NCBI GenBank assembly: GCA_049274945.1 | Contig: JBASTP010000006.1 | Location: forward strand, 96,529 to 160,528 | Reading direction: 5' to 3' | DNA from: Patescibacteria group bacterium | GTDB taxonomy: Bacteria > Patescibacteriota > UBA1384 > GWA2-35-9 > JBASTP01 | Length of the DNA: 64,000 bases | Shown: one piece after another, positions 1,482 to 31,833 of the stretch | Numbering within the stretch: the first letter of the stretch is position 1 | Layout: each line of letters opens with the position of its first letter | Position numbers and translations under genes: made by a program | Notes under the pieces: generated by a model | What the model was told of the DNA's origin: nothing | The model's database searches: none | What the model saw: the letters and a program-made list of their open reading frames with translations, nothing else

Positions 1482-2945
1482 ATGAACCGGATTCTCATTA
1501 TCGCAATTGTTGGCTTTATCATTATTGCCGCAGTCGTGGCGGCGGTCTCGCTGCGCGGCGGCCGGAACAACAAAACAAAGCAGACGACCCAAACTCGGGA
1601 CGTAAACGAGCTCACCATCTGGCGGGCGGCTGATTCAGCCGAGAGTTTTAAGGACGCGATTGCCGCGTACACCCAAGACAAACAAGGCATCAAAATCAAT
1701 GTAGTTACCAAAACCCCGGCAGACTTTGAGAACGAAAGCCTTTCTGCCCTCTCGGCCGGTAAGGGGCCTGACATCTGGTCGATTCCGGCAAGCTGGCTTC
1801 CCAAACATGCCGACAAGCTCAAACCGGCGCCTGACAATCTGCTCAATCCCAACCCCGATGTCAAAGTTTCCAATAGCGACCTCGTCAAGCAGCTCTACGC
1901 CCCGATCGTTGCCGAAGAGGTGGTGGGCCAAGACGGCAAGGTCTACGGCCTGCCGCTTGCCCTCGACACCTTGGTGGTGTTTGCGAATACCGATTTGGTG
2001 CGGCAGCGGTTCGGCGAACTTTCTAAAAACGGCGAGCTCAAAAATCCTGATCTCTACACCCTGGGCCCCCGAACGTGGGATGAGCTGATCGAACTTTCCC
2101 AGGCATTGACGGTAAAGGATGGGGGAACAATCCGGCGGCCGGGTATTGCGCTGGGAACTGCTACCAACAACCCCCGCGCCGCCCAAATCTTGGCGGCAAT
2201 GATGCTCCAGAACCAAACTCAGATGGTCTCAGCCGACCGCGCTTCGGCGACGTTCCACTTGCCCGCACGCAAATCAACCGGCGAGCAGTTTTACCCGGGC
2301 ACCAATGCGCTGGAATTTTTCACCTCGTTTGCCGACGAAAAATCAAACCGCTACAGCTGGAATGCCACTCTGCCGGACGCCCGAGAACTGTTTATTAAAG
2401 GCGAGCTTCCCCTCCTCATTGAGTTTTCCCACTTCGGCGCGGTAATCAAGCAACGCTCGCCGGAGTTTGCGACTCGGATGTGGGCACTGCCCCAGGTGCG
2501 CGGTTCGGTAAAGCCGGTTGACTACGGCGAATACTTTGTTGAAACTGTTACCAAGGATGCCGCCAATGAGCAGTTGGCGTGGGACTTTATCCGGTTTATG
2601 GCCTTTCAGGGCGCTCGGCTCTACCAGCTTTCAAGTGGCCGGCCCCCGGCGCTCAAGGTAGAGGTGGTGCCGCAAAACATCCTGGAGCGGGCGACGTTCG
2701 GCAGCCCTAACCAGTTCCAGCAGCAGAGCGCAAAACCCTGGTACCGCGGCAAATCTCCCGAAAAAGTGGAAGCGGCTTTTGGGGAAATGATTGATGATGT
2801 GGCGGCCGGGCGGCTCGCCCCGCAGCCGGCAATTGAACGGGCGGCGGCGCAAGTCTCCGGGCTCCTGCGCAAGGATACCGGCATCTCGCCGGCGCCGATC
2901 ATTCAACCGCAACTCGTTCCGGGAGGCGCCAGTGGCGACCGGTGA
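1482..2945 (+). CDS. membrane-anchored extracellular solute-binding protein (ABC-transporter SBP-like)
   Basis: AAGGAGG RBS 7 nt upstream of the ATG. N-terminal TM anchor (ILIIAIVGFIIIAAVVAAV) followed by a ~450-aa extracytoplasmic domain with family-1 SBP-like composition. Family-level call only. Confidence 0.45.
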   Translation: MNRILIIAIVGFIIIAAVVAAVSLRGGRNNKTKQTTQTRDVNELTIWRAADSAESFKDAIAAYTQDKQGIKINVVTKTPADFENESLSALSAGKGPDIWSIPASWLPKHADKLKPAPDNLLNPNPDVKVSNSDLVKQLYAPIVAEEVVGQDGKVYGLPLALDTLVVFANTDLVRQRFGELSKNGELKNPDLYTLGPRTWDELIELSQALTVKDGGTIRRPGIALGTATNNPRAAQILAAMMLQNQTQMVSADRASATFHLPARKSTGEQFYPGTNALEFFTSFADEKSNRYSWNATLPDARELFIKGELPLLIEFSHFGAVIKQRSPEFATRMWALPQVRGSVKPVDYGEYFVETVTKDAANEQLAWDFIRFMAFQGARLYQLSSGRPPALKVEVVPQNILERATFGSPNQFQQQSAKPWYRGKSPEKVEAAFGEMIDDVAAGRLAPQPAIERAAAQVSGLLRKDTGISPAPIIQPQLVPGGASGDR

Positions 2946-2962: not shown

Positions 2963-3315
2963 TGCTCAATGCCCTCAACGAAGCCATTGACGCCGAGCAC
3001 GCGGCAAATATTGGCATCCTGTTTCGGGAACGGATCGCGCTCATTATTAATTTCATGCTCGCGCTCGTCGGCGCGATCGCGGTGGTGATGGGCATGGTGG
3101 CCGGATTTATGTACATGACCGCCTATGGCAATGAAGAACGAGCCGCGGCGGCCAAGCGAACCATCTTCTATGCCGCGATCGGCTTGGCAATGGTGTTTTC
3201 GGTTTGGACTATCCTGCAGCTCGTTACCAGATTTTTGGGAACCGCGGGGGAAAACATCCCAGATGTGGAGCGCCCGGGAACCGAAGCCCAGCATGGGCTG
3301 GAGGGGCAGCTGTGA
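2963..3315 (+). CDS. T4SS pilin-like two-TM protein (paralogue 1)
   Basis: The track ORF from 2791 overlaps the upstream gene, so I start at the ATG at 2963 (MLNALNE...). Two hydrophobic helices flank the motif Y-G-N-E-E-R-A-A-A-A-K-R, which is shared with six other ORFs in the window. Confidence 0.6.
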
Positions 3316-3674
3316 TTTTGTTTCAAATTATTGTCGGGCAGCCGGAGACTTTCACCTTCGTCGACTTGATCGCCACCGGCAACCGGATTATTGATTTGAT
3401 CTTGATCTTCTCGGTCGGCACGGCGGTGATCGCCATGCTCTGGGCCGCCTACATTTACATTTCTTCATTCGGCTCCGAGGAGCGCGCCAAGCAGGCCAAA
3501 AACATTTGGTATTTTACGCTGATCGGTTTGGCGGTGATGCTCTTGGCAAAAGTGATTATTGCCACTGGCCTGCGGGTAATCGAGCCCGGCCCCGAGCTGC
3601 GTAAAAACATCGATAACGTACTTAAAAGTAACGGGGGCTCCGCAAACCCCCCGCAGCTTGAGTTCAAAAAATAA
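3312..3674 (+). CDS. T4SS pilin-like two-TM protein (paralogue 2)
   Basis: GTG start at 3312 overlaps the upstream TGA (GTGA), so the 3204 start is rejected. Motif F-G-S-E-E-R-A-K-Q-A-K-N lies between two TM helices. Confidence 0.55.
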   Translation: MILFQIIVGQPETFTFVDLIATGNRIIDLILIFSVGTAVIAMLWAAYIYISSFGSEERAKQAKNIWYFTLIGLAVMLLAKVIIATGLRVIEPGPELRKNIDNVLKSNGGSANPPQLEFKK

Positions 3675-3676
3675 CC

Positions 3677-4270
3677 ATGGCCCACACTTCGCAGGAAACC
3701 CAAGGTATCGTTGACTCGCTCACCCGCTTGAGCAAACTCTTTCAAATTCGGGAAGCTCGGCCGCTCACCGACCCTATCCAGGCAGACTTCCTGGCAATTC
3801 TTTTGGCAGTGATCCGGCTAATGCTCGATCTTTCGATTTACCTCTTTATGACCGGGATCCTGGTGATGGGCGTGATTTTCCTCTTTTCAATGGGCAACGA
3901 GGAAACGCTCACGCGCGCCAAACGCACCTTAAACCAATCGCTCATCGGCCTGGCCATGACCTTTTCGAGTTTTGCCGTGCTCGAGTTTTTTATTAGCCGG
4001 CTCTCTGGCCCGCTCGCGTTTGCCCAAGGTGCCAATATTGCGATCGTTTTTGGGAGGGCTTATAATCTAGTGCTTATTGCCGCGGGTTCGGGCCTCGTGA
4101 TCATCTTACTCTATGCCGGGACACGGTACCTGTTTGCCGGCGGCAATGAAGAATCGCAAGAAGGCGCCAAAAAAATGATCAACGCGGCGCTGTACGGTAT
4201 AATTTTGACACTGGGCTCGTTCGCCATTTCACGGCTTTTGATGACCCGGTTTGGAGCGTTACCACAATGA
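3677..4270 (+). CDS. tandem-duplicated pilin-like protein (two pilin modules in one ORF)
   Basis: Two complete TM1 / GNEE / AK[KR] / TM2 modules in one 197-aa ORF: MGNEETLTRAKRTLNQSLIGLAM and AGGNEESQEGAKKMINAALYGIIL. Confidence 0.6.
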   Translation: MAHTSQETQGIVDSLTRLSKLFQIREARPLTDPIQADFLAILLAVIRLMLDLSIYLFMTGILVMGVIFLFSMGNEETLTRAKRTLNQSLIGLAMTFSSFAVLEFFISRLSGPLAFAQGANIAIVFGRAYNLVLIAAGSGLVIILLYAGTRYLFAGGNEESQEGAKKMINAALYGIILTLGSFAISRLLMTRFGALPQ

Positions 4271-4968
4271 GACAAAAATCAAATATCAAAATTCAAATAT
4301 CAAAATTGGTGGCTGGCATCTCATTAGCTACTGTGCTACTGACAACTGCGCTACCGGCTTTTGCCCAGACGCCGGTTTCCGGCGGCAAGGCGGTCAACGT
4401 AAATTTACGCCAAGTCGCCAGCCAGATCCCATCCAACTTTGTTGAGCTGCCCGGAATCATTGGCCGGATTTTTACCGTCACGATCACCGCGGCAGGAGGG
4501 CTCTTTGTCATCATGCTGCTTTTTGGCGGCATCAACTACCTCACCGGCGCGGGCAACGAAGAATCAACCAAAAAAGCCAAAGGCCGAATCATCGACGCGT
4601 CAATCGGTATTGTGATTACCCTTTCGGCCTTCGCGATCGGCACCTTCATTTTGAACCAATTCTACAAAGGTTCGAGGCCGCCCAGCCAACCGGCAACTAC
4701 TCAACAAACTGGCGCCGGCACGAGCCAAGCAATTAGTTTTAGCGTGCGAGTCCAGGATCAAACGGGTAACCCAGTGAATGGCGCGACGGTGAGCGTGAAC
4801 GGTAACCTCAAGGGCAGAACAAACAGCGGCAAAGTCTCATTCCAGGTTACCCAAGGCCCGGGCAGCTACACGGTGGCGGTGTCGTCTGCGGGCTGCGATT
4901 CCCACTCCGAGCAAATCCTGATGACCGACCAAGGCTTTGTTGAGATAACCTTGAATTGCGTGGATTGA
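4267..4968 (+). CDS. pilin-like protein with C-terminal Ig-like/carboxypeptidase-regulatory-like beta domain
   Basis: ATGA overlap with the upstream stop. Signal peptide ending AFAQTP, pilin module (GAGNEESTKKAKGRIIDASIGIV), then a C-terminal beta-rich segment (FSVRVQDQTGNPVNGATVSVNGN...SYTVAVSSAGC). Confidence 0.6.
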   Translation: MRQKSNIKIQISKLVAGISLATVLLTTALPAFAQTPVSGGKAVNVNLRQVASQIPSNFVELPGIIGRIFTVTITAAGGLFVIMLLFGGINYLTGAGNEESTKKAKGRIIDASIGIVITLSAFAIGTFILNQFYKGSRPPSQPATTQQTGAGTSQAISFSVRVQDQTGNPVNGATVSVNGNLKGRTNSGKVSFQVTQGPGSYTVAVSSAGCDSHSEQILMTDQGFVEITLNCVD

Positions 4969-5074
4969 TGCTTCGACCTTGCTCAGCATCAACTCTGAGC
5001 TTGTCGAACGAGTTGACATTACATTGGTCGACCCGTAGCATAGAAGTAACAAACATAGTAGAGGAGGTGACCCT

Positions 5075-5464
5075 ATGAACAAAAATCTCAGGGCTCTGGC
5101 ACGGATTGGCGCCGGCGCTACGGCAGCCATGAGCGTTGCCAAAGTAGCATTCGCCCAGTTTTTCGAACCGGAAACGCTCACCACCCCTGGTGGGGTAACC
5201 CAGAGCCGGTTTGGCTCGGTTAACCAAGCGGTCAACACCATTTTCAACACGGTGATTGCCGCGGCCGCCGCAATTTTCGTGATTCTGCTTTTAGTCGGCG
5301 GCGTCCAGTACCTTGGCGCAGCCGGGAACGAAGAATCAACCGCCAAAGCCAAGAAGCTGCTGATTGACGCGGTGATCGGACTCATTATCGTGCTGGCAGC
5401 CTGGGCCGTCGGTCGGTTTGTCCTTTCACGATTCTTCCAGCCAGGCGCTGGTGTTATTTTCTAA
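5075..5464 (+). CDS. T4SS pilin-like two-TM protein (paralogue 5)
   Basis: GGAGGTG RBS 8 nt upstream of the ATG. Signal peptide plus motif AAGNEESTAKAKKLLIDAVIGLIIV. A possible sigma70-like promoter (TTGACA at ~5018, TAGCAT 17 nt later) lies in the 106-bp upstream gap. Confidence 0.65.
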   Translation: MNKNLRALARIGAGATAAMSVAKVAFAQFFEPETLTTPGGVTQSRFGSVNQAVNTIFNTVIAAAAAIFVILLLVGGVQYLGAAGNEESTAKAKKLLIDAVIGLIIVLAAWAVGRFVLSRFFQPGAGVIF

Positions 5465-5466
5465 AC

Positions 5467-6207
5467 GTGCACGGTTATCTTGTTAAGCTCAGGGCTTGGA
5501 TTATCGGTTTTTTGATAGGGCTCAGCCTGCTTGGTTTACCGGTGGCGGCTGGGGCCCAAGGCGGGCTTGACCCGCGGGGCAACCCGCCGGAACAATTCCG
5601 TGACGTACTCCCCTTTCAAAGCGGCCCTGGCGCAACTCGAATTGAGAACCTGCCCGATCGCTTCCAGTCGCTCGCCCAAATTGTTGCCACGATTTTTAAT
5701 ATTGTCATCGGCATCTCCGGATCAATCTTTATGGTGCTGCTCTTAATCGGCGGCATCCAGTACATGACCGCGGCCGGCAACGAAGAGAACACCACCAAGG
5801 CCAAGAAACTGCTCGTTGACGCGGTGATTGGTTTGGTGCTAACCCTCTCGGCCTGGGCAATCGGCACCTTTATTCTGCGGCAGTTCTACTTGCCGACGAG
5901 TGGAATCATTAGACCAGGCGGCGGAGCGAGCAGTGGCGGCATTGGCGGCGGCGGGGGGGCTGGACCGGTGGCGGGTGGTGGCGGCCCGGGCACAGGAAGC
6001 ACTAACACCAATCAAATCAATGCTGCTTTTAATGCCGGTTTTGACGCCGGCCAACGATCATTCGCGGCGGCCAACAACGATCCAAATGCCGCCTGTGATA
6101 AGACTGGAAATCCGAATTATCGCCCTACTGCAGTTGCGAGCCAGCTACAGGCCGAATATGACAGCGGTTTTGAGACCGGATGCAGTAACTCTGGCACTCG
6201 AAGATAA
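5467..6207 (+). CDS. pilin-like protein with Gly-rich C-terminal extension
   Basis: GTG start 2 nt after the upstream stop. Signal peptide, motif AAGNEENTTKAKKLLVDAVIGLVL, then a poly-Gly linker (GGGASSGGIGGGGGAGPVAGGGGPG) and a short C-terminal domain. Confidence 0.6.
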   Translation: MHGYLVKLRAWIIGFLIGLSLLGLPVAAGAQGGLDPRGNPPEQFRDVLPFQSGPGATRIENLPDRFQSLAQIVATIFNIVIGISGSIFMVLLLIGGIQYMTAAGNEENTTKAKKLLVDAVIGLVLTLSAWAIGTFILRQFYLPTSGIIRPGGGASSGGIGGGGGAGPVAGGGGPGTGSTNTNQINAAFNAGFDAGQRSFAAANNDPNAACDKTGNPNYRPTAVASQLQAEYDSGFETGCSNSGTRR

Positions 6208-6245
6208 AAAAATAGGGGCAAGATTGCTCTTGCCCCCGGGTCGTT
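6205..6245. terminator. bidirectional intrinsic terminator between convergent genes
   Basis: 9-bp perfect stem GGGGCAAGA / TCTTGCCCC (6215-6236) with a 4-nt loop. A/T-rich runs on both sides (AAAAAATA upstream, CGTTTTGG downstream). Confidence 0.4.
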
Positions 6246-20712: not shown

Positions 20713-23700
20713 TTAAAACCCGATATGAACATGTTGGGTAACCAATGGGGAGATACTGATACCCTGGCGGTTTTCCTTGGATGGGGCATCTTCATTGAAG
20801 ACTTGTTTGTAGCGGTCAGAGCCAAAGAAGGCGAGCAGGTCTTGCTGTCGGGCGGTAATGATCTGAACCGGTTTTGTTGAAAAGTCAGGTTCCTTTTGCC
20901 GCACGCCCACGAAGTTTTTGTCAATAAAGTAATAGGGCATCTCCATCATATCAGAAATCAAACCGTTGACTCGGACCCGGGCAGCCTGTTTAAGCCCTGC
21001 GCGGTACTCGGTCGCCGCCATGCCGTTAAACTCGGGCAAGCCAATCGCGAGATTTGGGTTGAGAGGCTCAATTTGCGGGTAGTAGCCGTCGCCGGTGCAC
21101 AGCACAAAGATTTTTACCTTGTTGAAGCCAAAAAGGTTGAGGGCGATAAAAAGGCCAAGCGTAATCGGGTTTAAGGCCGCGCCCATCAGCGCCGCGATGC
21201 CCATGCCGATCAAGATTGCGCCGGTGCCTGGCACGAGGCCGAGCGCTTGCTCCATCTGCCCCACCTGTTTGGCAAACACGATCGTAACAACAATCGTAAT
21301 CATTAGGGTATAAGCATCACTAAGTTTCGACCCGGCATCCTGAATCGCCGGATTACCTAAGGTAAAGGTGCTTTGAGCTGCCGCAAATGCTGCTTTGGCG
21401 TGGAGGAAGTTTTGAGTGGCAAAGTAGATTTGGGCGGCATTGCCGACTTGCCAGCCCATTTTACTGTCAAGAAATTGGAAGGCTTGCGAGACTGCCCACT
21501 GGCCGTAGATGCCGACAATTGTTCCCGGAGTATTGAGGTTGCCCAGCGCTCCGGTGCGGCCGTACTGGAACAGCGCCTGGGTAGTGCCCGGCTTCCACAG
21601 GTCGCCAAAGAGTTTCTTTTGGATCACAAACTGATCGAGTGAGCCGAGCGCGCCGGTTTGCACCAGCCTGTCATAGTTTTGCCCCGAAGAATCACGAAGG
21701 TACGCTCGGGCGGCATCGAGCGACCCCTGCGCTAAATGAATGCCAAGAATGTTGTGGTTATTAATCAGGTTTTCCGCGTAATTTAGGAGCGAGGTGGTGC
21801 GCTCTTGGGTGGTGCCTTCGAACATCGCCCGAGCAAACCCAGCAGGAATGTTGATGTCGGCTTTGTAGAGTTGGTTGTCGATTAGGCGAAATTGGAATTC
21901 ACTCTTGCGTTGGGAGCGAACTCTACTCCGTTCGTTCTCGGTTTCGGCGGCAGCTTGGGCTTGGGCGAGGACTCGTTGTTGCGCTTCGTCAGTCACACCC
22001 GATTCCTCGGCGAATCTTAGCGCGCTATTGTAGGCATCTTCGCGGAACGCCTCGAGGCGGCTCTCATCGTCAGCCGGCGCGCGCAGCGAATTGACAATTA
22101 CCTCATAGGTAATCTGGCGGTCTGGCGGCAGAAGATTGCCGTTTTTATCTTTGTTGAGCGAGCCCGCCATGTCAGCGGCGGCGACAAAGCCCAAAAAGCG
22201 CATGTCGCCATGGATCAGTGATTGAATATCGCTATCTGGCATAACAATACCACCGCGGCCTTGCCGATCTTGGGTGCGCGTAAAAATTTCGCTGCGCGCC
22301 GCGAGCGTAAACTCATTTTCAGCGGCATCTCTGACGACTTGCGGCTGGCGAGTTGCATCAGCCTCAAAGGAAATATTAAAGACACGCGAGAGCGGCCCGT
22401 CGTGCACGCCATCGTTCAAGCCAAATTGGTTTTCGAGCTTGAAGACCCCCTCGGTTAGGAAGACTTTCCGCGCGTTTTCCGGTTCTGCGGCAATGAGCGA
22501 GAAGGTGCCGGTGCGCACCCCAAGCTTGCTGTCAAATCTGATGCTGAATACGGTATCGAGCGCGCTGTAAAATGATTGGCGATCTTGTGGCCGCCAAGCA
22601 GCAACGTCGGTCACTGAGTTGCGTCGCAGTAAATCAAAAACGATCGGAAACTGGGAATTGAAATTGTCCCTGGCCGTGCCCTCAAGTCCAAGCACATCCG
22701 CTAACCGATCAATCAGCGCTGTCGAACGGGCAAGCGTGTCTGCAATCGAGAAGTCCCCCACCTTCTTGGCATAATTCGCCGGACTAAGCTCACCCTTCAG
22801 CAATTTTTCGGTAGCGCCGATTTCAAGCCGCAGTTTTTCGTCAACCTCTTCAATGGTTAGTTCCTTTTGTTCGTTTGCGACCTCGCCGCGCCGGAACTGA
22901 TCAATAATTCTCCAAGCGCCGTCTCGGCTTATCGCGTTGCCGTTTACTCGGCTAAGGTATGCCAAGGCGGCGTTTTGGGGGCCTATGGTAGTGATCGACT
23001 GAGGCAACGAGAGAGTTTCAATCGCTCGCCCCAGCTCGCCAGGATCATAGCCCTCAAGAGACAGGCCGTTGGGGTGACCGGTCATCCGGAACGCGATCGC
23101 AAAATTAATCGGCTGGTTGCGCTCGATTACCTTATCGAGCGAATCGCGGAAGGTGCCGGGCTGCAGGCCAAGCGTTGCCTCAACCGCGTAGCGTCCTTGG
23201 ATTTCCTCCGGCACGCCAAAGATCGGCAGCGCCCCGATGCCTAAAAGATTGCCGAAGTAGTGCGATGCTACATCGGCCATGGCCAACCGCTTGTCGTCGG
23301 AGGAGGGGGCATGGAGCAGTTGGTAGAATACACTTTGGGGCAGATCGAGCACTTGCTCAAACTTCTGCGCGGCCACCCGTTCAAACACCGGCCTGCCACT
23401 ACCTGAGAGCATGTCGTAGATGTCGTAGGGGGTAAAACTAAGCCCGCCGAACTCTACGTTGATCCCCAGCAGGTTAACACCGCGCAGGAGCAGCACCTCT
23501 TTACCCACTCGTTCAAAGTACTGATCGGCTGTCAGTTCTTGGGTCGCCAGACGACTTGTGATTGATCGTCTGCCCGTTCCGATTCCCAGGATCGCATCGA
23601 TCTGTTCCGGTGTGTTTTGAGCGAGCGCTACGCGAATGGGTTGGCGGCCGAAATACTGCTCGTACTGGGCGCGCCCCACTGCCCTGAAGAACGTCTCGGG

Positions 23701-26382
23701 AGATTGCTCCCGCTCCTTGAGCGTGTAGAAGATTGCCCGCGGCGGCAGCTCGAGCGAATTTTCAACTTGTCGTGCGCCAATTGAGAGTGCCAAATCTTTG
23801 GTGGCGCGTCGGCCATTCAACCAATCAAATAAGTCTCGAGCGGCAATAAGGTTGTTTGAGCGGCCGCGCTTGCCCGTTTGACTGTAATCGGCAAGCCTTA
23901 CATCGCTGATTTGTCTTGCGGGCGTGCCACTCACAAGTTCCTCGATATCACGGTACATTGCGCTGAGCTCATTTTGGATTTGAGTGCGCAGAGCTTGTTC
24001 ATTGAGCGGCCCGACGGCGCTTGAAATAGCATCGAGCGATCGCGAGATTTGTCTCACTGCGTTCGCCGAGTTTTGGAAATTAAGCGGGCTGCGGAAAAAC
24101 TGATCAAGACTGGATTTGATTGTGTTAACTTCAGTTCTAATGGCTGGGTCGCTCGTTGCCGCTCTGGTGAGTTGGTCTAAATTATCATTACGATTTTTGA
24201 GATCATCAAAACGGCTGCGGCGAAAATCATATGAGGCTCTGGCCTCGGCAATTTCTGGGTGCTCGGCCAAGAGTTCCTGCTCCCTATTATTGATTGCTTG
24301 TTGCACTTCGGTAGTATTTTGGATTGCCTGCACAAGCCTATCGCGGCCGATGCGTTTAAAAATAGGGACAGCGCCTTGGCCGGAGAAGATGCGAGCAAAT
24401 TCCCCGGGCCGCAACTTCGTCAATGACATAATTGTTCGTTCAGGGATTTGCCAATCGTTTGACGGATTTTCAAAAAAATTATTAATCGCCGAACGATCAC
24501 CATCGTTCGGCGACAATTGATTAACGAGCGCCTGACGGCCAATTACGGCAAGCACGGTTTGGTCACCATTCAATAATCTTCTGATAGTGCCAGCCGGTGT
24601 TGCATAAAAACTATTTTCTTGTGACTGTTCACTGTTCACAAAGTTGCGGAATGAGCCAAAGTTGTCATTGAGCAGTTTACTGCCAATCGCTCGTTTGTAA
24701 TCCGCAACACGGCCATTCAAGAAATCGGAAGCAGTCTTGCCATACGGCAACCCGACGAGTTCATCAATTGCGCTGGGTGATGAGGCAAACATAATTTGAA
24801 TTTTACGTTCGCCAAGTTGTCGTTTAAGCGTTGTCAAATCATTCGCCGCGAAGCTCCCCGCGGGCAATTTCATTTTAGTTTCGATCATTGCCTCGCCGAT
24901 TTTTTCCTCAAGCGCTGGACGCGAGTTCCAGGTACCCTGAAGGGTGTTTTCTTTAAGCCCAAGTTCTGACTCAAGTTTGCGGCGGCCAACCGAGGTCAAG
25001 ATCTCGCTAGCGTTATTACCACGCAGTGAGCCAATCGGGAGACCTAAGCGTTGTTCGATCGTAAATCGGCCTACTGAGTATTGGATATCATCAATTGTGT
25101 TGCCCTCAATCGCCTGTCGAGGCAAACCGAGCCGGTCAGCTAATACGGCACGGCCAAAGAGCTCCACGGTATCGCCTAGGGATGACCCGTCAAGGCCACG
25201 GCCGCCAATTGCCGATTCAATGAGGTGGCGGCCAATAAAGTCTGCCATATCCTGGAGGTTGGCGTAGCGCAAGCTGCCGTCATCGCCTAAATCATTGACG
25301 TCAAATTCAGAGAGCGTATCAAGCAGGGCATTTTGAATAAGATTTTGAGTGAGGTCGTTGATCGAGAGCCCCGGTGGGTTTTCTTGCGCCACGCCTTGGT
25401 CGGTTTGATAGCTCACTTTGATAGGTTTGGGCGGGAGTTTTTGGCGGTTGACCTTGCGGAGGATGATGCCCTTTTTGACCACTACCTTACTGCACTTAAT
25501 CGTTTCGATTTCCGAGATATCGAACGCCTGGCCTTGAGCATGGAGCGAGATGTTATCGGCCCCCTCGGTTTCTTTTGAGAGTGTCTTCTCGCGCAACGGT
25601 TTGCCGCTTTTGGGGTCCCGGGCCGTGTAGTTTTTCCAGATTCTGGCCACCTTAATGCGTTCGTGGCCGCCGCCGTCTTGCGCGCGCGGCGTGATGAGCC
25701 AGGCAAGGGCATCAACCACTCGACGATCGAGCGGGAAGTTCTGTTTGGTTTTTTGAACCAACTGATCGCCCGGCAGGTCACTCGCAAATACGATGCCTTC
25801 CAGGAAATCGCTCACCTCAATGGCCTCGCGTTGTTGCTCGATCAGTCGTTCGAGTGAGCTAAGAGCAACGCGCGATCGGTCGGTGAATATCTTGGTTTGA
25901 GTCTCTCGAACAAGCTCCAGCACTTGGTTTCTGCGCACTTCGTCCTGGAGCACGGCCCCTACCCCTTGCTCACCCTCAAAGCCCAGCTCGATTAGCTTTT
26001 GTTTGAAGTCGTTGAAGGTTGCCTGATCTTCTGCCGATACGTTGCTCGTGTTCTTGGTGTACTGGTCAGGATCAAGGTGGGCGCGCAGGATCGCGGCGTC
26101 TCGCGGGTCTAGGATGAGTTTGCCTTCTCTGGTGATCGGGTTTTTGAGTGCATCGAGTGTATCAGTGAGGGTGGCAAGTAGCGGTTCGGCCGTTTCACCG
26201 GGCGCCTCATTTGGATCAAGCGGATCGCTGTCGCCCTCACTGCCTAGTTCTTGGGCATAAACTGGTTTGGCAAACAAGGTCAGCGGGCTCACTTTTGGAT
26301 CAACTAACCAACTTGCGAATACCAATTCCGTGAGAATGAATCCAAGGATGATGCCCCGAATTATTAGACTCGTACTTTTCAT
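20713..26382 (-). CDS. giant (~1890 aa) secreted/membrane-anchored protein of the T4SS-like operon
   Basis: The ATG at 26382 (MKSTSLIIRGIILGFILTELVFASWLV signal/anchor) overlaps the upstream stop as ATGA. The TTG at 26427 is less likely. Long, mostly hydrophilic body. Several C-terminal hydrophobic helices (…ITIVVTIVFAKQ…GTGAILIGMGIAALMGAALNPITLGLFIALNLFGF…). Confidence 0.5.
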   Translation of the reverse strand: MKSTSLIIRGIILGFILTELVFASWLVDPKVSPLTLFAKPVYAQELGSEGDSDPLDPNEAPGETAEPLLATLTDTLDALKNPITREGKLILDPRDAAILRAHLDPDQYTKNTSNVSAEDQATFNDFKQKLIELGFEGEQGVGAVLQDEVRRNQVLELVRETQTKIFTDRSRVALSSLERLIEQQREAIEVSDFLEGIVFASDLPGDQLVQKTKQNFPLDRRVVDALAWLITPRAQDGGGHERIKVARIWKNYTARDPKSGKPLREKTLSKETEGADNISLHAQGQAFDISEIETIKCSKVVVKKGIILRKVNRQKLPPKPIKVSYQTDQGVAQENPPGLSINDLTQNLIQNALLDTLSEFDVNDLGDDGSLRYANLQDMADFIGRHLIESAIGGRGLDGSSLGDTVELFGRAVLADRLGLPRQAIEGNTIDDIQYSVGRFTIEQRLGLPIGSLRGNNASEILTSVGRRKLESELGLKENTLQGTWNSRPALEEKIGEAMIETKMKLPAGSFAANDLTTLKRQLGERKIQIMFASSPSAIDELVGLPYGKTASDFLNGRVADYKRAIGSKLLNDNFGSFRNFVNSEQSQENSFYATPAGTIRRLLNGDQTVLAVIGRQALVNQLSPNDGDRSAINNFFENPSNDWQIPERTIMSLTKLRPGEFARIFSGQGAVPIFKRIGRDRLVQAIQNTTEVQQAINNREQELLAEHPEIAEARASYDFRRSRFDDLKNRNDNLDQLTRAATSDPAIRTEVNTIKSSLDQFFRSPLNFQNSANAVRQISRSLDAISSAVGPLNEQALRTQIQNELSAMYRDIEELVSGTPARQISDVRLADYSQTGKRGRSNNLIAARDLFDWLNGRRATKDLALSIGARQVENSLELPPRAIFYTLKEREQSPETFFRAVGRAQYEQYFGRQPIRVALAQNTPEQIDAILGIGTGRRSITSRLATQELTADQYFERVGKEVLLLRGVNLLGINVEFGGLSFTPYDIYDMLSGSGRPVFERVAAQKFEQVLDLPQSVFYQLLHAPSSDDKRLAMADVASHYFGNLLGIGALPIFGVPEEIQGRYAVEATLGLQPGTFRDSLDKVIERNQPINFAIAFRMTGHPNGLSLEGYDPGELGRAIETLSLPQSITTIGPQNAALAYLSRVNGNAISRDGAWRIIDQFRRGEVANEQKELTIEEVDEKLRLEIGATEKLLKGELSPANYAKKVGDFSIADTLARSTALIDRLADVLGLEGTARDNFNSQFPIVFDLLRRNSVTDVAAWRPQDRQSFYSALDTVFSIRFDSKLGVRTGTFSLIAAEPENARKVFLTEGVFKLENQFGLNDGVHDGPLSRVFNISFEADATRQPQVVRDAAENEFTLAARSEIFTRTQDRQGRGGIVMPDSDIQSLIHGDMRFLGFVAAADMAGSLNKDKNGNLLPPDRQITYEVIVNSLRAPADDESRLEAFREDAYNSALRFAEESGVTDEAQQRVLAQAQAAAETENERSRVRSQRKSEFQFRLIDNQLYKADINIPAGFARAMFEGTTQERTTSLLNYAENLINNHNILGIHLAQGSLDAARAYLRDSSGQNYDRLVQTGALGSLDQFVIQKKLFGDLWKPGTTQALFQYGRTGALGNLNTPGTIVGIYGQWAVSQAFQFLDSKMGWQVGNAAQIYFATQNFLHAKAAFAAAQSTFTLGNPAIQDAGSKLSDAYTLMITIVVTIVFAKQVGQMEQALGLVPGTGAILIGMGIAALMGAALNPITLGLFIALNLFGFNKVKIFVLCTGDGYYPQIEPLNPNLAIGLPEFNGMAATEYRAGLKQAARVRVNGLISDMMEMPYYFIDKNFVGVRQKEPDFSTKPVQIITARQQDLLAFFGSDRYKQVFNEDAPSKENRQGISISPLVTQHVHIGF

Positions 26383-27596
26383 GGGAATGTTAGGTAGTAT
26401 GCGTTGGGGTAGCGGCCGCCGAACCAACGTTCATCGTCAATCAAATGAACCGGTGAATTTTTTTCTCGATAGGCTTGGGGCAGTTTGATCCGTGCACGGC
26501 CGTCCTTTGAACCAGGGTCGTTGACATAGGCCTCGCGGCCGTCCTCGGAGAAACCAACAATCGTCAGGAAGTGACTGCCCTTATTGGAGAAGTTCGTGCC
26601 GATTACCACCGGCGTTTTGGTGCGATCTACGATATCCCGGATTGTACGCCAGTCTTGATCAGACGGCCCCATCTTGCCAGAGCGGCTGCCGCCCAGCACA
26701 ATTTTTTCCACTTTGGCGTTGGGCAGACCTGCCTGGCTGGCGGCAAAACGGAGATAGCCCCCGGTATCTTTCGGGCAACTCCTCGGTGGATCAGTTCGAC
26801 CTGCTATAATTTTTTCTTCAAGCTCGCGGGGGTAGCTTTTCTTCTCAGGTGGTCCAGAACTTTTGTCGTATGCATGGTAGAGCACTGCCATCATCGCTGC
26901 GTAGTAGTTGCAAGTAGTCGAGTTGACTGGTTGGAGCCGCCAGGGCACCTTGAGGCGCTTTGAACCGCCAGGCAAGAACAGTTCGGCAGTAAGAAACTCA
27001 AAGCGCAAACCGAGGGCGTGGAGTTGCTGGAGTAAATTGTCTTGGCTACCAAGGTCGCTTGTCCCGCGAATTTTTTTGGCGAGTACCTCCATCTCCCGTA
27101 ATAGGTTGATCGCTTCGGTCCGCTTATCCTCAGCAATGTTAGCTCTGCGTAGACCCTCAATTGCTGTGTAAACTCGCGCATCGAGTTGACGCGACTCGAT
27201 CAACTCTCGTTGAAGGGTCGGGATCAGTCCCGCCGCTGACTGGACTCGCAGCAGGTTTTCCCGATCAACGCTATTTTCGCCGTTGAACGGTTCCGGCTCG
27301 TGGGTGCCCTGGGCTCTTAATAACCTTGAAGGTTGCCGATAGTACACAAAAAACGCCGCTCCGGCGATGAGCACCACCACGATGATCATTATGACTGCGG
27401 CAATCGGTCCGAGCGCCAATAGAGCCGCAAACGCAAACTGGATCCCCGCCTGGACGACCGGGATGACCATCTTTAGTTTATTGAGCGTACCGGCTATCGT
27501 ACGGAGTTGGTTAAGCTTGTCCTCAAATTCTCGCCGGGTCTGGCGGTAGCGCGTCGGCTCCTCCGAATCATCACTGATTGTTGGTTCATCGGCCAT
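26379..27596 (-). CDS. membrane-anchored papain-fold Cys peptidase (CHAP/C39-like), putative cell-wall hydrolase
   Basis: AAGGGGGTG RBS. N-terminal TM segment, coiled-coil region, then a C-terminal domain with candidate catalytic Cys (NSTTCNYYAAMMAV) and His (KGSHFLTIVGFSEDG) followed by Asp/Asn (AYVNDPGS). Confidence 0.45.
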   Translation of the reverse strand: MADEPTISDDSEEPTRYRQTRREFEDKLNQLRTIAGTLNKLKMVIPVVQAGIQFAFAALLALGPIAAVIMIIVVVLIAGAAFFVYYRQPSRLLRAQGTHEPEPFNGENSVDRENLLRVQSAAGLIPTLQRELIESRQLDARVYTAIEGLRRANIAEDKRTEAINLLREMEVLAKKIRGTSDLGSQDNLLQQLHALGLRFEFLTAELFLPGGSKRLKVPWRLQPVNSTTCNYYAAMMAVLYHAYDKSSGPPEKKSYPRELEEKIIAGRTDPPRSCPKDTGGYLRFAASQAGLPNAKVEKIVLGGSRSGKMGPSDQDWRTIRDIVDRTKTPVVIGTNFSNKGSHFLTIVGFSEDGREAYVNDPGSKDGRARIKLPQAYREKNSPVHLIDDERWFGGRYPNAYYLTFP

Positions 27597-27605: not shown

Positions 27606-28826
27606 TTAGAGTTCTAACCACCATAGTTTGTCTTGAGCAATAAAGACTACATTTTTACCAGTTGCATCCATTCTAAATTGGTGTGCTCCTTCCGGCAGTT
27701 CGTTCGCCAACTTCAGGGCGAGAAAATTGTTGGTGTTAAGCTCATAGCTGCCAAATTGTTTACCCTGAGCGGAGTCGAAGGGTTCGAAGATTCCCGTGAT
27801 GCGATCCCCTGCGATTGCCAGGTCGCTAGCTTGGCCCTTAAATCCAAGCTTCAGCGCCTCCCCGAGTTTGATTGTGCCAAGTTCCTTGCTTGTACCGGTC
27901 GTTACTATTTGAAATGGTACTACCGTAAGCTCGCCATCGCGGGTTATAAGGAGCCGTTCGTTAGCCAGGAAAACACTGCTTGAGACGCCATCGGCAACTT
28001 TGCTGATTGTCTTGGTAGTGATGACGGCAAGGTAGGCGGCTTTGCCATCATTGACAAGGACGGTGTTACCGTCGGGTGAAATATTGAGCCGGGCACGATC
28101 GATCTCGACATCTTTGAGATCGATCAGCCGTTCAATTCGCTCCCGAGATCGCTCCGATCGCACCAGTGACCGTTCGGATGAAGGACTGTAGAGGTGGTAG
28201 ATCAGTTTGCCTTCCGGGTCGAACGCAAATGCGCGAGAATCACTATCGTATAGTTTGAACTCTTGGTGGAGCAGGTCGTACCGGGCAAAGTTATAAAGTC
28301 CTGAGCTGCCGGTACGATCGGCGAGCGTTGCTACGGAATAGTCAGGCGCAAACGCTACTTCGGTCAGCTCGCCCAGCACCGAGGGGGTAATCGGAATATT
28401 CTCAACTTTGGCACCTTCAGGGCCTTCCACAAACCGCAGCCGAAAGAGCGCTCTAGCTTGCCGGTTAAAGTAAAAAAATTGATCTCCCTCGGGATTGCTT
28501 GAGAGCAAATCAACCTGCTCTGCTACCACGAGTTTTGCTGAAGCCAGCTTCTTGAGCGAAGTCCGAATCCGTTTAATTTGCAGCGCCCGGATTTTTATGG
28601 TCTCCCGGTGCGGAACAAATCCTGGAGCGGTAACGGTAAGCTGGTAGCTGCCCGGCGTGAGCCGGCTCGTAAAGCCCACTTCTTTGCCATCGATTAGTAC
28701 CGTAGCGTTTTTTGGTTCAGGCAGCACAATAATGCTGCCAAGCCGATACGACACGGCAAACGCGATGGCGAGCGCGAGGAGGGGAATGGCGATAATCGCT
28801 ATCCAGAACCATATACGTGCCGTCAT
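27606..28826 (-). CDS. PEGA-domain membrane protein with beta-rich periplasmic domain
   Basis: N-terminal TM anchor. PEGA-like segment PKNATVLIDGKEVGFTSRLTPGSYQLTVTAPGFVPH. The remaining ~300 aa is beta-rich. ATGA overlap with the virB4 stop. Confidence 0.45.
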   Translation of the reverse strand: MTARIWFWIAIIAIPLLALAIAFAVSYRLGSIIVLPEPKNATVLIDGKEVGFTSRLTPGSYQLTVTAPGFVPHRETIKIRALQIKRIRTSLKKLASAKLVVAEQVDLLSSNPEGDQFFYFNRQARALFRLRFVEGPEGAKVENIPITPSVLGELTEVAFAPDYSVATLADRTGSSGLYNFARYDLLHQEFKLYDSDSRAFAFDPEGKLIYHLYSPSSERSLVRSERSRERIERLIDLKDVEIDRARLNISPDGNTVLVNDGKAAYLAVITTKTISKVADGVSSSVFLANERLLITRDGELTVVPFQIVTTGTSKELGTIKLGEALKLGFKGQASDLAIAGDRITGIFEPFDSAQGKQFGSYELNTNNFLALKLANELPEGAHQFRMDATGKNVVFIAQDKLWWLEL

Positions 28827-30613
28827 GGTTGGTTAGGTTCAGATTTCGGTTGCTTGGTTGCCTGCTCGATCGCTAACAGTTGCCGGGGGTCGGTGGTAAT
28901 GAGTTGGTCCTCGATGTACGAAGCAACCACTTTAATTGCGACATGGTTTTTGCCCGCAAAGAATAAGCCTTCACCGACATCGGCTTCAAGGAGCAGAAAC
29001 TTTTCACCCTCAGTGAGATTAAACACCTCGGCAATTTTGTCGATCGCCGCGGTTGATTGCTTAAGCAGCACCTGCATCGCCGCGTTATTCAAGACCGCGC
29101 GGCCGTACTTGGAATCGAGGAAATCCTCGGCATCTTGGGTGATTACGGTCATACCGAGGTAGTACTTGCGGGCGCGTTTAACCAGGGCGTGAACGAATTT
29201 GGCCGAGTCTTCGTGGGCCATCATTACCCAGGCCTCGTCCATAATCACGAGGCGCCGCCGCAGCTCGCGGCGGATCTTGCCCCAAATATAGGAGAGGATC
29301 AAATACATGCCGATCGGCCGAAGTTGCTCTTCCAAGTCGCGAATCGAAAACACCACCAAGCCGGCAGTCAATTCAAAGTTAGTTGGTTTGGTAAACAGGC
29401 CCGCGAACGTGCCCTCGGTGTATTTTTGCAACCGTTTTACCAGGCTCTCGGCGCCGGTCATATTGGCAAGCACCGAGATGAGGTCGGGTAAAAGCGGCGG
29501 CGGATTTTTGTGGCTGGCCGGATCGGCGGTAATGTCTTTGAGGGCATACACTTCGTAGAGCGCCTTATCGAGGATTCCCGATTCGTCGGGGGTTAAGCCG
29601 CCGACCATCAAACTTATCAAACCTTCAACCATGGCAATGGTTGAACGGAGTACGTTCTCACCGGTCTCACCTTCGGTGAGCGGCGGCAGGTCGAACGGAT
29701 TGATCCTTTGGGTCGAGTTGAGCGAAAGGTTCATAAACGAGCCGCCGACTGCCTCGGCAAGCGCCCGGTACTCGTTTTCCGGGTCAATGATAATCACGTC
29801 CGTGCCCAGCATCAGGTAGCGGAGCGCCTCGAGCTTGACCATGTAACTTTTGCCGGCGCCCGAGCGAGCAAACACAATCGAGTTAGCGTTTTCTAAATCG
29901 AACCGGTCAAAGAGAATCAAGCTGTTATTATGCCGGTTGATGCCGTACAGGATGCCTCGGTTCGAAGAGAGGGTTGCCGAGGTAAAGGGGAACGTGGTAG
30001 ACAGTGATGCCGTGTCGAGGTTGCGCAGGACCTGGAGCTCATCGGCGCCGAGCGGCAGCGAGGAATTGAAGCCCTGTTCCATTTGCAAGAACGCCTGCTT
30101 GGTGTAAATCAGCATGCCGCCAAACGCACTCTCAAGTTGTTTGTTCAGTGAATCGAGCTCGCCCATGCTCGTGGCATACACCGTGATGTAGAGTGAGAAG
30201 TGGAAGATCCGCGTCTCACCTTTTTGGAGCACCTCGCGCAGGGCATCAATGTCGCCGACCGCGGTTTCAAGCTCCGGGTCGCGCACCAAACCTTTTTCGT
30301 GCTGGATCGCTACTGAACTTTCAAGTTGGGTCTGGCGTCGGCGGAGCTGGCCCATCACCTCGCGAGTTTCAACCGGGTAGATAAACATCGAAATGTCCAT
30401 GGGGATGTCGAAGTTAATCACCGGCGAGAGCCAGTTGGTGTTGAGATAGCGCGGGTAGGTGAACACGAAAAATGTCTTCACGTAGAGGTTGTTAAGTTCA
30501 AGGTAGTTAGGCGTGATCGCAAAGGCCGCCGGCGAAATAATATCAAGGAGGGTGGTTTCGCCCGCGTGGAGCTCTTTTTCTAATGTAGTCTCGTGGGTGG
30601 TTTGTTTGGCCAT
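28823..30613 (-). CDS. virB4: VirB4/TrbE/PrgJ-family T4SS ATPase
   Basis: Walker A FARSGAGKSYMV, DPENEY motif, Walker B RRLVIMDEAWVMM, and TVITQDAEDF (sensor/arginine-finger region). 596 aa, consistent with the Gram-positive-type VirB4. Confidence 0.7.
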   Translation of the reverse strand: MAKQTTHETTLEKELHAGETTLLDIISPAAFAITPNYLELNNLYVKTFFVFTYPRYLNTNWLSPVINFDIPMDISMFIYPVETREVMGQLRRRQTQLESSVAIQHEKGLVRDPELETAVGDIDALREVLQKGETRIFHFSLYITVYATSMGELDSLNKQLESAFGGMLIYTKQAFLQMEQGFNSSLPLGADELQVLRNLDTASLSTTFPFTSATLSSNRGILYGINRHNNSLILFDRFDLENANSIVFARSGAGKSYMVKLEALRYLMLGTDVIIIDPENEYRALAEAVGGSFMNLSLNSTQRINPFDLPPLTEGETGENVLRSTIAMVEGLISLMVGGLTPDESGILDKALYEVYALKDITADPASHKNPPPLLPDLISVLANMTGAESLVKRLQKYTEGTFAGLFTKPTNFELTAGLVVFSIRDLEEQLRPIGMYLILSYIWGKIRRELRRRLVIMDEAWVMMAHEDSAKFVHALVKRARKYYLGMTVITQDAEDFLDSKYGRAVLNNAAMQVLLKQSTAAIDKIAEVFNLTEGEKFLLLEADVGEGLFFAGKNHVAIKVVASYIEDQLITTDPRQLLAIEQATKQPKSEPNQP

Positions 30614-30617
30614 GGCG

Positions 30618-31346
30618 TTACTCCGGGTTAATCACGTTTAACTGGCTTGCTTTGTTTTCCACTTTCTTTTCTTCTTCGATTGGCTGTTTCTCAATGATCG
30701 GCGCCTCGATTACGCCCAGTTCGGTAAGCTGTTCCTCTTGTGACTCCTCGTGGTTGTACAGGCGATAAAACAGTTCAACAACTCCCTGGGTGTCCAAAAT
30801 GGTGGTAGTCATGCCCAAGGGGGCAAGCCCGCCAATCACCACCTGCGTGCGTTCATCGAGCGTTTTCTGGAACTTGCCGTAGTCGGCCGGTGAAAACTTA
30901 ATCTGCGATTTTCTGGTGCCAAAAAGGGAGCTGAAAAATCCCTGCTTGGTGGGACCCGGCTCAATTCCTACCACAACGTAGAATCGCTTCTCCATAATGT
31001 TCGCCAGCTGGGTAAGCCGTTTAATAAACTCGATATACTCGTTGGCATGGAGCCGTAGCAGCTCCGACTCAATTTTGTTGACGAACTTGGTGAGCGATTC
31101 CATGTAGGGGTGCAAGTCGAGCCGCCGGGAGTGCACGACAATTTGGATGGGGAAGTTGAGCGAGTTCAAAAAGCTCTGGAACTGGCCAACCATCGCCTGC
31201 TGCTCTTGCTCGGATTTGAGCGAGAAGTTCACTGGTGTTACCTCTACCACTTTGCGCAGTAAACCAGTCTTCGTGACTACAATACCATCGGCAACATTGG
31301 CAATGTTGACGTATCCCTGGGTTGATTGGACGACTTTTTTGGCCAT
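30618..31346 (-). CDS. hypothetical T4SS-associated protein (resembles the N-terminal domain of Gram-positive VirB4/PrgJ-like proteins)
   Basis: The ATG at 31346 (MAKKVVQ) is preferred over the track TTG at 31367. The pattern DGIVVTKTGLLRKVVEVTPVNFSLKSEQEQQAMVGQFQSFLNSLNFPIQIVV recalls the membrane-proximal N-domain of PrgJ/TraE-type ATPases. No NTP-binding motifs. Confidence 0.3.
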   Translation of the reverse strand: MAKKVVQSTQGYVNIANVADGIVVTKTGLLRKVVEVTPVNFSLKSEQEQQAMVGQFQSFLNSLNFPIQIVVHSRRLDLHPYMESLTKFVNKIESELLRLHANEYIEFIKRLTQLANIMEKRFYVVVGIEPGPTKQGFFSSLFGTRKSQIKFSPADYGKFQKTLDERTQVVIGGLAPLGMTTTILDTQGVVELFYRLYNHEESQEEQLTELGVIEAPIIEKQPIEEEKKVENKASQLNVINPE

Positions 31347-31353
31347 GGTTATT

Positions 31354-31719: not shown

Positions 31720-31833
31720 ATCGATATTTTGCGGAACCTTATACTGCGCCACGGCGAAAAAACCTCCTTCTCCCTCCTTGGGGAGAACTACCTGCCCCGC
31801 GTAGCCCAGAGCTTGGCGAAGGGCGTAGCGGGG

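Follow-up and report, generated by a model that had tools for sequence, protein, structure and literature searches.

What do the tandem genes for small hairpin proteins close to dnaA in Patescibacteria encode, and which machinery would their products serve? We addressed this question in a stretch of 64,000 nucleotides, referred to below as the window (GenBank assembly GCA_049274945.1, contig JBASTP010000006.1, positions 96,529 to 160,528), from a Patescibacteria group bacterium whose nearest named relatives are Candidatus Berkelbacteria. The open reading frame (ORF) lists and the sequence of this 64-kb window yielded seven ORFs, P1 to P7, that hold eight hairpin modules, P1 to P6 in tandem on the plus strand and P7 on the minus strand. 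We consider it probable that these genes code for VirB2-like pilin paralogues of Pfam family PF18895 and belong to a chromosomal, origin-proximal type IV secretion system (T4SS) of the monoderm type.

Seven genes carry eight homologous modules

The eight modules align without gaps through their core, with G39, E42, A47, K48 and G57 invariant. Their pairwise identities range from 17 to 60%, and from 24 to 60% for the seven modules of the six-gene array. We scanned all six-frame ORFs of at least 40 amino acids (aa) in the window, 822 in number, with two hidden Markov models (HMMs), one built on the eight modules and the other on a 94-member family that included P1, P2, P4, P5 and P6 and excluded P3 and P7. 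Both returned exactly these eight modules and no others, bearing out the seven-gene paralogue family described in a first-pass annotation of the window. The six consecutive plus-strand genes of that annotation are in place; the seventh, P7, lies on the opposite strand. The start quoted for P1, position 2963, is one base off: stops occur in that frame, and the ATG is at 2962.

Hydropathy profiles revealed two hydrophobic stretches in each module, around a G-[NSG]-[ES]-[EP]...AK loop. This loop contains two to four K/R and two or three D/E residues in seven of the eight modules, and one and two, respectively, in P7. Heuristic inspection for n-h-c regions detected N-terminal signal-peptide-like segments ending in A-x-A in P4 to P7 only (predicted cleavage ends AFA↓Q, AFA↓Q, AGA↓Q and VRA↓A) and none in P1 to P3. 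Thus, the architecture initially proposed, namely a signal or first transmembrane (TM) segment, the motif and a second TM segment, holds for the hydrophobic stretches of all modules, but signal-peptide-like N termini are restricted to four of the proteins. An N-terminal hydrophobic segment is present in about half of 120 homologues.

All seven proteins matched PF18895 (T4SS_pilin), with bit scores of 44.6, 22.6, 33.3, 34.0, 42.7, 43.8 and 26.3 for P1 to P7, respectively. Five of the seven (P1, P3, P4, P5 and P6) exceeded the gathering score of 26.6, P7 was 0.3 bit under it, and P2 remained at 22.6. P3 (E = 5e-30) and P7 (44.7 bits, E = 5e-13) were detected by the family profile that did not contain them; P2 scored 70 bits (E = 7e-21) against the 94-sequence profile, which contained P2 itself. 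The first-pass annotation had singled out PF18895 as its own decisive test, and the matches of all seven proteins, together with the location of P7 in an operon with PrgI and VirB4 genes, support the T4SS-pilin reading.

The GNEE...AK[KR] motif, by which the family had first been recognized, is present in these proteins, but it is not special to this genome. A [YW]-x-T-[AS]-[AG]-G-N-x-[ED]...A-K loop is common to most of approximately 50 homologues inspected from the 120 listed, and on that comparison the motif is a signature of the whole PF18895 family. The family is large: a search with the eight-module profile collected 72,420 clusters at 50% identity with E <= 1e-3, and 11,161 with E <= 1e-10.

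Database entries agree with these assignments. NCBI gives the name "pilin" to the 127-aa protein P0020, which comes from the same contig, has the same loop motif as P1 and corresponds to it; this version implies the GTG start at 2932. The NCBI protein 100% identical to P7 is also named "pilin" and starts at 20732 (343 aa). For P2, a gene caller run on an identical Logan contig similarly found 120 aa.

We modeled the P4 module with AlphaFold2, using the 94-sequence alignment. The prediction is a helical hairpin composed of residues 61-93 and 98-135, with predicted local distance difference test (pLDDT) values of 82-89, in agreement with the fold foreseen in the first-pass annotation. The turn is formed by G-A-G-N, and E-E...A-K-G-R opens the second helix. 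Fold searches failed to discriminate between candidates, the fold being a generic TM hairpin.

P7 is encoded in a T4SS operon on the other side of the origin

P7 is the final gene of a minus-strand operon coding successively for PrgI, the N- and C-terminal parts of VirB4, a PEGA-domain protein, a Peptidase_C39_2-like protein and a giant protein (Table 1). By its gene content, this operon is a T4SS gene set of the monoderm type (MPF_FATA-like). VirB4 is split into two ORFs that are 4 bases apart. The Peptidase_C39_2-like protein is a candidate cell-wall hydrolase or VirB1 analogue. The giant protein had no match in Pfam or NCBIfam; its hydrophobic residues 1705-1777 leave room for about three C-terminal TM segments, and it may represent an extended VirB6-like protein or a surface component. 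No relaxase or coupling protein (VirD4) family was recognized among the window ORFs scanned, several large ones of which are matchless.

The six-gene array ends at position 6207, approximately 4 kb before dnaA, and the T4SS operon begins at 19701, with the origin region between them.

Gene order and hairpins are conserved among relatives, and appended domains are not

We compared the window with three related genomes, L002 (Berkelbacteria GCA_016196985.1), L014 and L015/L016. The order solute-binding protein (SBP) - P1 - P2 - P3 (double module) - P4 (with beta domain) - P5 - P6 - M48 peptidase (- recF - dnaN) is common to these relatives, and each paralogue is a stable orthologous slot in the four genomes. 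In contrast with this slot-by-slot synteny, the DNA similarity among paralogues is merely 63-73% over 144 nucleotides (nt), indicating that the duplications are old and that the paralogues are specialized. Recent duplication or gene conversion among them was rejected on the same values.

The hairpin modules are 88-100% identical in L002 and L014 and 71-92% identical in the more distant L015. P5 is the best conserved, its module being 100% identical in L002 and L014 and 92% in L015; for the P1 orthologues, identity is 87% in L002, 91% in L014 and 64% in L015. The appended parts behave differently. In P4, the module is 81-91% identical among relatives, versus 34-72% for the C-terminal domain. 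In P6, the module is 96-97% identical, versus 21-23% for the tail, in L002 and L014. At the DNA level, identity is 80-93% along the array and falls to 30-50% at 4673-5029 and again at 5914-6261; for P6 it is 31-38% from 5914 onward. As for P7, the module and the 20 residues that precede it are invariant in its orthologues, and the N-terminal domain and the Cys-containing C-terminal tail vary, are replaced or are absent. Such a pattern fits a core under constraint whose exposed appendages evolve fast.

This distribution bears on the antigenic diversification that had been suggested from the multiplicity of the genes. The appended domains do vary, but the number of paralogues and their hairpins are conserved slot by slot. 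The related suggestion of adhesin-tipped or minor pilins is an inference with which the hypervariable appended domains are consistent.

A gene coding for a "23S_rRNA_IVP" protein (a four-helix bundle) is found between P1 and P2 in L002 (9185-9577) and between the M48 peptidase gene and recF in L014 (6360-6839), and it is absent from the window. Its absence here suggests a small mobile insertion within or beside the array.

The first-pass annotation had described Ig-like domains in P4 and P7. For P4, a domain of that general type is suggested near threshold: the C-terminal domain matched CarboxypepD_reg (PF13620) at 31.0 bits, with a gathering score of 32.3, as well as Big_1 (E = 2e-5) and PEGA (E = 4e-3), and its AlphaFold2 model has five beta strands at pLDDT 50-70. 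We regard it as a near-threshold case of a beta-sandwich of the CarboxypepD_reg/Big_1/PEGA type. The TM-anchored PEGA-domain protein of the T4SS operon falls in the same broad beta-sandwich class as the P4 domain, with its weak PEGA and CarboxypepD_reg matches; the two might have a partner in common or both bind the cell wall. For P7, neither the N-terminal domain nor the other appended part had a Pfam match, but two orthologues, P0010 and P0012, gave weak CarboxypepD_reg matches (19 bits, E ~1e-3), faintly suggesting a beta domain of that type in P7 as well. There is no sequence similarity between the P7 N-terminal and P4 C-terminal domains. Both P6 and P7 have C-terminal tails of 90-100 aa, which had gone unflagged.

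The modules share distant similarity with VirB2

We aligned a profile of 92 pilins from the Candidate Phyla Radiation (CPR) with one of eight annotated VirB2/TrbC proteins from MPF_T plasmids, using hhalign. The two profiles align in register over 67 columns across the hairpin, with a score of 26.8 (P = 4e-4), and the CPR loop has seven residues more than that of VirB2. A reversed VirB2 profile scored 11.1, and 30 column-shuffled profiles scored 5.6-15.2, indicating that the similarity goes beyond a composition effect. Several family members match both PF18895 and PF04956 (TrbC/VirB2). On these comparisons, distant homology to VirB2 is likely.

The best NCBIfam match for six of the seven proteins, and the second for P2 (16 bits), is NF045849, the "pilin-like conjugal transfer protein" of mycoplasma integrative and conjugative elements. 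The scores range from 16.0 to 39.7 bits, the best being that of P6, and with a cut-off of 40 the proteins are not members. The match hints that pilin-like proteins accompany some monoderm-type systems.

P3 is a conserved double module, and longer chains are common

The claim that P3 contains two modules in one ORF was confirmed, the two HMM stretches corresponding to two full modules. Module A is nearest to P1 and module B to P4-P6. P3 is kept at 196-197 aa in eight homologues, with identity down to 68%, and distant doubles of 178-194 aa, 24-33% identical to it, align with it over the full length. The alignment of the distant doubles was too divergent to seed a genome scan, and a scan of the Genome Taxonomy Database species genomes for P3 relatives returned one weak Saccharibacteria locus only.

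The linker of P3 contains PLAFA↓QG, which resembles the AFA↓Q of P4 and P5, and we considered that P3 is a polyprotein cut at an internal signal-peptidase site. This idea was rejected, as A-x-A is missing from the 68% identical homologue P0007 and is lost in the distant doubles P0194, P0198, P0203 and P0212. A-x-A-Q was likewise rejected as a processing signature common to VirB2 and CPR proteins, being found in 7 of 120 homologues only.

Of the best 150 matches to the module profile, 146 (within the set P0138-P0286) have 2-17 tandem modules per chain; Pfam confirmed a sample of them, and they come from several independent sources. The longest chain, P0156 of locus L012, has 17 modules in an ORF that is uninterrupted under translation table 11. 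It adjoins a ribosomal L39e gene and Cas4, and because of the L39e gene we consider the locus probably archaeal. Judged from these matches, multi-module fusion is common, and it is undescribed in the literature searched: there is no mention of it in PMC12102498 or PMC12857230, nor in the pilin and T4SS passages of PMC10633639.

Organization of the array and of its surroundings

The coordinates of the features are given in Table 1. The genes are tightly packed, with four-base overlaps between P1 and P2 and between P3 and P4 and spacings of two bases between P2 and P3 and between P5 and P6. The 106-bp gap between P4 and P5 is the only one in the array big enough for a promoter-like site and a GGAGG ribosome-binding site. 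At the other end, the hairpin that follows P6 is likely a bidirectional terminator closing the array. Upstream, the stop of the SBP gene overlaps the GTG-2932 start of P1, and the same overlap was called in L002, L014 and L015. A Pfam scan of the neighboring ORFs found no ABC permease or ATPase genes beside the SBP gene.

Table 1. Positions of the pilin-like genes, their modules and neighboring features in the window, and of two multi-module proteins from other loci
Feature	Position (strand)	Description	Evidence
SBP gene	1482..2945 (+)	Membrane-anchored extracellular solute-binding protein, directly upstream of the array	Pfam SBP_bac_1, SBP_bac_8
P1	2932..3315 (+) or 2962-3315	Putative single-module pilin, 127 aa from GTG 2932 or 117 aa from ATG 2962; no signal peptide	
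P1 module	3016-3240	Loop YGNEERAAAAKR	
P2	3312..3674 (+)	Putative single-module pilin, 120 aa; GTG start overlaps P1 stop (GTGA)	
P2 module	3351-3581	Loop FGSEERAKQAKN; divergent paralogue	Weakest Pfam pilin score of the seven
P3	3677..4270 (+)	197-aa ORF with two full putative pilin modules; no signal peptide	
P3 module A	3776-4009	MGNEETLTRAKR	
P3 linker		~6 aa between module boundaries; ~12 aa between predicted helices	
P3 module B	4028-4255	GGNEESQEGAKK	
P4	4267..4968 (+)	Start overlaps P3 stop (ATGA)	
P4 signal peptide (predicted)	4267-4365	...PAFA↓Q	
P4 module	4438-4671	AGNEESTKKAKGR	
P4 after module	~4672-4965	Pro/Thr/Gln linker, then C-terminal beta domain (near-threshold)	
Promoter-like site before P5	5013-5041	TTGACA-17-TAGCAT	
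P5	5075..5464 (+)	Predicted signal peptide ...VAFA↓Q; single module 5210-5443 AGNEESTAKAKK	
P6	5467..6207 (+)	Predicted signal peptide ...AAGA↓Q; module 5662-5895 AGNEENTTKAKK	
P6 C-terminal tail	~5896-6204	~100 aa, Gly-rich, Cys-containing	
GC-rich hairpin	6214..6237	Flanking A and T runs; between convergent P6 and M48 peptidase genes	10 pairs, 6 G-C
recF-dnaN-dnaA	7782..11451 (-)	dnaA at 10111-11451	Pfam SMC_N, DNA_pol3_beta, Bac_DnaA
P7	19701..20687 (-)	Predicted signal peptide ...SVRA↓A; ~130-aa N-terminal beta-rich domain (putative); module 19962-20186 SGGSPEATAHAKE	
P7 C-terminal tail		~90 aa, 4 Cys	
Giant protein	20713..26427 (-)	1904 aa; N-terminal TM segment, large hydrophilic body	Hydropathy
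Peptidase_C39_2-like protein	26379..27596 (-)	TM-anchored; TM at residues 41-89	PF13529 24.7 bits, gathering score 24
PEGA-domain protein	27606..28826 (-)	TM-anchored	PF08308 38.3 bits; hydropathy
VirB4 ATPase, C-terminal part	28823..30613 (-)	596 aa	NF045971 (VirB4-like CD1110 family) 361.7 bits, cut-off 325; Pfam P-loop_TraG, AAA_10
VirB4 N-terminal/TrsD-like protein	30618..31367 (-)	249 aa	NCBIfam partial matches VirB4_plasma E = 4.6e-11, TrsD E = 1.6e-6
PrgI (VirB3-like)	31354..31920 (-)		PF12666 40 bits, gathering score 27
P0156 (locus L012)	10001-15328	1775 aa, 17 modules	Also matches PF04956 TrbC
P0140 (locus L013)	4904-6655	583 aa, 7 modules	

Between dnaA and yidC, at approximately 11800-16000, the GC content is low (38-43%, compared with approximately 54% elsewhere). 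This stretch codes for an S-adenosylmethionine-dependent methyltransferase, a DUF6190 protein, a dihydrodipicolinate synthase (DHDPS)-family protein and an aminotransferase, and it may be a horizontally acquired island, perhaps for sugar or amino-acid modification. At 38462-53463 and 56783-63933 are large ORFs (up to 1044 aa) that have no Pfam match at E <= 1e-4, except for an Hsp70-like protein at 42470-44230. Such runs of matchless ORFs are typical CPR "dark matter."

Discussion

Tandem arrays of divergent VirB2-like pilin genes near dnaA are already published for Patescibacteria, and the present locus is a further example. Using PF18895, Quinonero-Coronel et al. (2025; PMC12102498) reported VirB2-like pilins in 1,948 VirB4-containing Patescibacteria assemblies and 441 arrays of 2-11 genes, with T4SS genes often near dnaA. 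Our locus resembles those arrays in its detection by PF18895, its tandem genes, its association with VirB4, PrgI and TrsD, its proximity to dnaA and the lack of a recognized relaxase. Identities within the published arrays average 25% and reach 54% at most, compared with 17-60% here. That study counts genes, and a word search found no mention of multi-module chains or of appended domains and their hypervariability. It reports the highest abundance of arrays for Microgenomatia and Saccharimonadia, and its text does not name Berkelbacteria.

The pilin and T4SS passages of Wang et al. (2023; PMC10633639) describe a pilin series in the T4SS cluster of Candidatus Southlakia epibionticum ML1 (SEML1_0006-0019) as essential for epibiotic growth, as established by transposon insertion sequencing. 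According to those passages, that organism is also a Patescibacterium with a chromosomal monoderm-type T4SS, no recognized relaxase or coupling protein, and about six tandem VirB2-like pilin genes that are conserved in structure and divergent in sequence; we read the cluster as origin-proximal from the low SEML1 gene numbers. However, it belongs to Saccharimonadia, unlike the Berkelbacteria-like lineage studied here, and its array lies within the T4SS cluster, whereas here only P7 is in the operon. Essentiality was shown there. The same passages make no mention of double modules or of ectodomain fusions.

Other systems are more remote. The pilins VirB2, TrbC and TraA (Agrobacterium tumefaciens T pilus, F pilus) are likewise small proteins with an A-x-A signal peptide, as predicted for P4 to P7, and a two-helix hairpin; they are encoded together with VirB3 and VirB4, as is P7, and show the in-register profile similarity described above. 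In contrast, the proteins described here have a loop approximately seven residues longer with a G-N-E-E...A-K-K motif that VirB2 lacks, no significant PF04956 match, a monoderm host, many paralogues, fused modules and large ectodomains. Tandem divergent VirB2 paralogues in Bartonella and Anaplasma T4SSs, as cited in PMC12102498, have been read as host-exposed surface variation. Here, the slots are stable, the hairpin is near-invariant and the variation lies in the appended domains, which is unlike simple antigenic variation of the pilin itself. The Mbov_0395/MMCAP2_0565 family (NF045849) shares with our proteins an 80-position two-helix model and a VirB4 neighbor of the Mbov_0397 family, which also matches VirB4 here. 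Those proteins are carried by conjugating mobile elements, whereas the genes studied here are chromosomal and multiplied, with no relaxase seen and scores below 40 bits. Finally, the archaeal Ced pilin (Aeropyrum pernix pilus, PDB 8dfu) is a VirB2-like helical hairpin from an organism without an outer membrane, but the fold match is not significant (Foldseek E = 5.4, rank 43), and there is no sequence match.

How might such a set of proteins work? We propose that, on insertion in the cytoplasmic membrane, each module forms a hairpin whose two ends lie outside, placing the conserved zwitterionic G-N-E-E...A-K-[KR] turn at the cytoplasmic face. P4 to P7 would insert after cleavage of their signal peptides, and P1 to P3 perhaps by way of YidC or N-tail translocation. 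A VirB4-powered machine would then extract the modules and, in the manner of F and T pili, stack them to form a tube or a pilus-like conduit whose lumen would be lined by the conserved loop, with the termini on the outer surface. In the same vein, a review speculates that the Patescibacteria T4SS builds a pilus-like conduit (PMC12857230). P5, the plainest and best conserved of the paralogues, would be the likely major subunit, and P4, P6 and P7 would contact the host cell through variable ectodomains displayed on the surface or at the tip. P3, which joins a P1-like to a P4-6-like module, would be a covalent heterodimer and might act as an adaptor or as a nucleating subunit. The structure would serve epibiotic attachment to, or exchange with, a host cell rather than conjugation; no relaxase or coupling protein was recognized among the window ORFs scanned.

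A number of observations weigh against this interpretation. To our knowledge, a pilus of this type has never been seen in any Patescibacterium, and the name "pilin" is a prediction. PF04956, which the first-pass annotation had listed beside PF18895, gave no significant match, the best being P7 with E = 0.25 and 12 bits for a gathering score of 27.9. The hhalign probability of the VirB2/TrbC alignment is just 35%, and sequence comparison of the module profile with solved structures gave two chance matches only (E = 0.11 and 1). The AlphaFold2 model of P3, computed with 9 close homologues, shows two hairpins in its secondary structure but is of low confidence, with a mean pLDDT of 53. A distance of 13.5 kb, with dnaA in between, separates the six-gene array from the T4SS operon, and the array is translationally coupled to the SBP gene instead. 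P1 to P3 have no signal peptides, and their topology could be inverted. Lastly, chains of up to 17 fused modules are hard to square with the extraction of single subunits into a helical filament.

Several of these points would be accounted for if the hairpins stayed resident in the membrane, either lining a channel or serving as two-helix anchors that show variable ectodomains, with no polymerization and no extracellular pilus. We find this alternative unlikely, while granting it a real chance. It is favored by the multi-module chains among the best 150 matches, as these would amount to polytopic proteins of 4-34 TM segments, an architecture more usual for membrane proteins than for filament subunits, and P3 is itself a module fusion of the kind that this explanation expects. 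The generic TM-hairpin fold is compatible with it, and T4SSs of the Gram-positive type, to which the VirB4 found here belongs, are mostly pilus-free, according to PMC12102498 and the T4SS passages of PMC10633639. However, the in-register similarity to VirB2/TrbC exceeds its controls, and some family members match both Pfam models. Conservation extends over the whole hairpin, up to 100% in the P5 module, as would suit tight packing between subunits, and the many divergent paralogues per genome resemble sets of major and minor pilins. The short external linker would also suit lattices of the VirB2 type with both termini outward, as judged from published F and T pilus structures.

A second alternative, that the six-gene array codes for lineage-specific small membrane proteins working with the upstream SBP in uptake or at the surface, P7 alone being related to the T4SS, appears improbable to us. 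The distance between array and operon, the overlap of the P1 start with the SBP stop and the SBP-array synteny kept in four genomes argue in its favor, as do the scores of P2 and P7 under the PF18895 gathering score. Nevertheless, all eight modules are clearly homologous, that of P7 in the T4SS operon included, and the SBP gene has no accompanying ABC permease or ATPase genes. Elsewhere, family members lie near virB4 in 1135 of 1,948 assemblies (PMC12102498), and the S. epibionticum array is, in the passages cited above from PMC10633639, both inside the T4SS cluster and essential.

Type IV (PilA-like) pilins assembled by the PilB/GspE-family ATPase encoded between the array and the T4SS operon can be dismissed, since no class-III prepilin motif ([GA][FMYW][TS][LIV][IVLM]E) occurs in these proteins, as the first-pass annotation had argued, or in any other ORF of at least 40 aa from the six frames of the window, and since the modules are two-TM hairpins assigned by Pfam to PF18895, not single N-terminal helices with a globular head; this reading is refuted by the missing prepilin peptidase site and by the fold. 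The ATPase gene (T2SSE, E = 2.6e-116) stands alone at 17921-19441 (+) between yidC and dciA, and without such a motif in the window the pilins and platform genes that go with it must lie elsewhere.

VirB2-like pilins assembled by the T4SS thus remain the reading that we favor. A broader possibility, which we put forward tentatively and hold in some doubt, is that VirB2-like pilins have a modular build in Patescibacteria and in some archaea. A near-invariant hairpin chassis might carry interchangeable, fast-evolving ectodomains that set host specificity, and the chassis might be concatenated into covalent "polypilins" of 2-17 modules, of which P3 would be the minimal conserved example.

The locus does not represent a new kind of system, but it offers a clean syntenic comparison of four genomes with three results: the paralogues are old specialized slots, the hairpins are strongly constrained, and the variation lies mainly in the appended outer domains. 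Such a pattern would be expected if host-contact modules were mounted on a conserved core, whether filament or channel. The conserved double module, the hypervariable ectodomains on invariant hairpins and the widespread multi-module chains are additions beyond the literature searched. The analysis nominates P5 as the likely major subunit and P4, P6 and P7 as host-range candidates, and the fused multi-module forms constrain any model of assembly. If fused forms do enter a T4SS pilus or conduit, a cell with a single membrane would have a so far undescribed means of building and decorating a conjugative-type filament. As regards how ultrasmall CPR bacteria attach to and exploit their hosts, few gene sets have been shown to be essential for epibiotic growth, and both the T4SS and its pilin series count among them. 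If the modular view is true, the long-sought factors by which epibiotic CPR bacteria recognize their hosts would have direct candidates in the hypervariable cassettes, namely the P4 C-terminal domain, the P6 tail and the P7 N-terminal domain and C-terminal tail.

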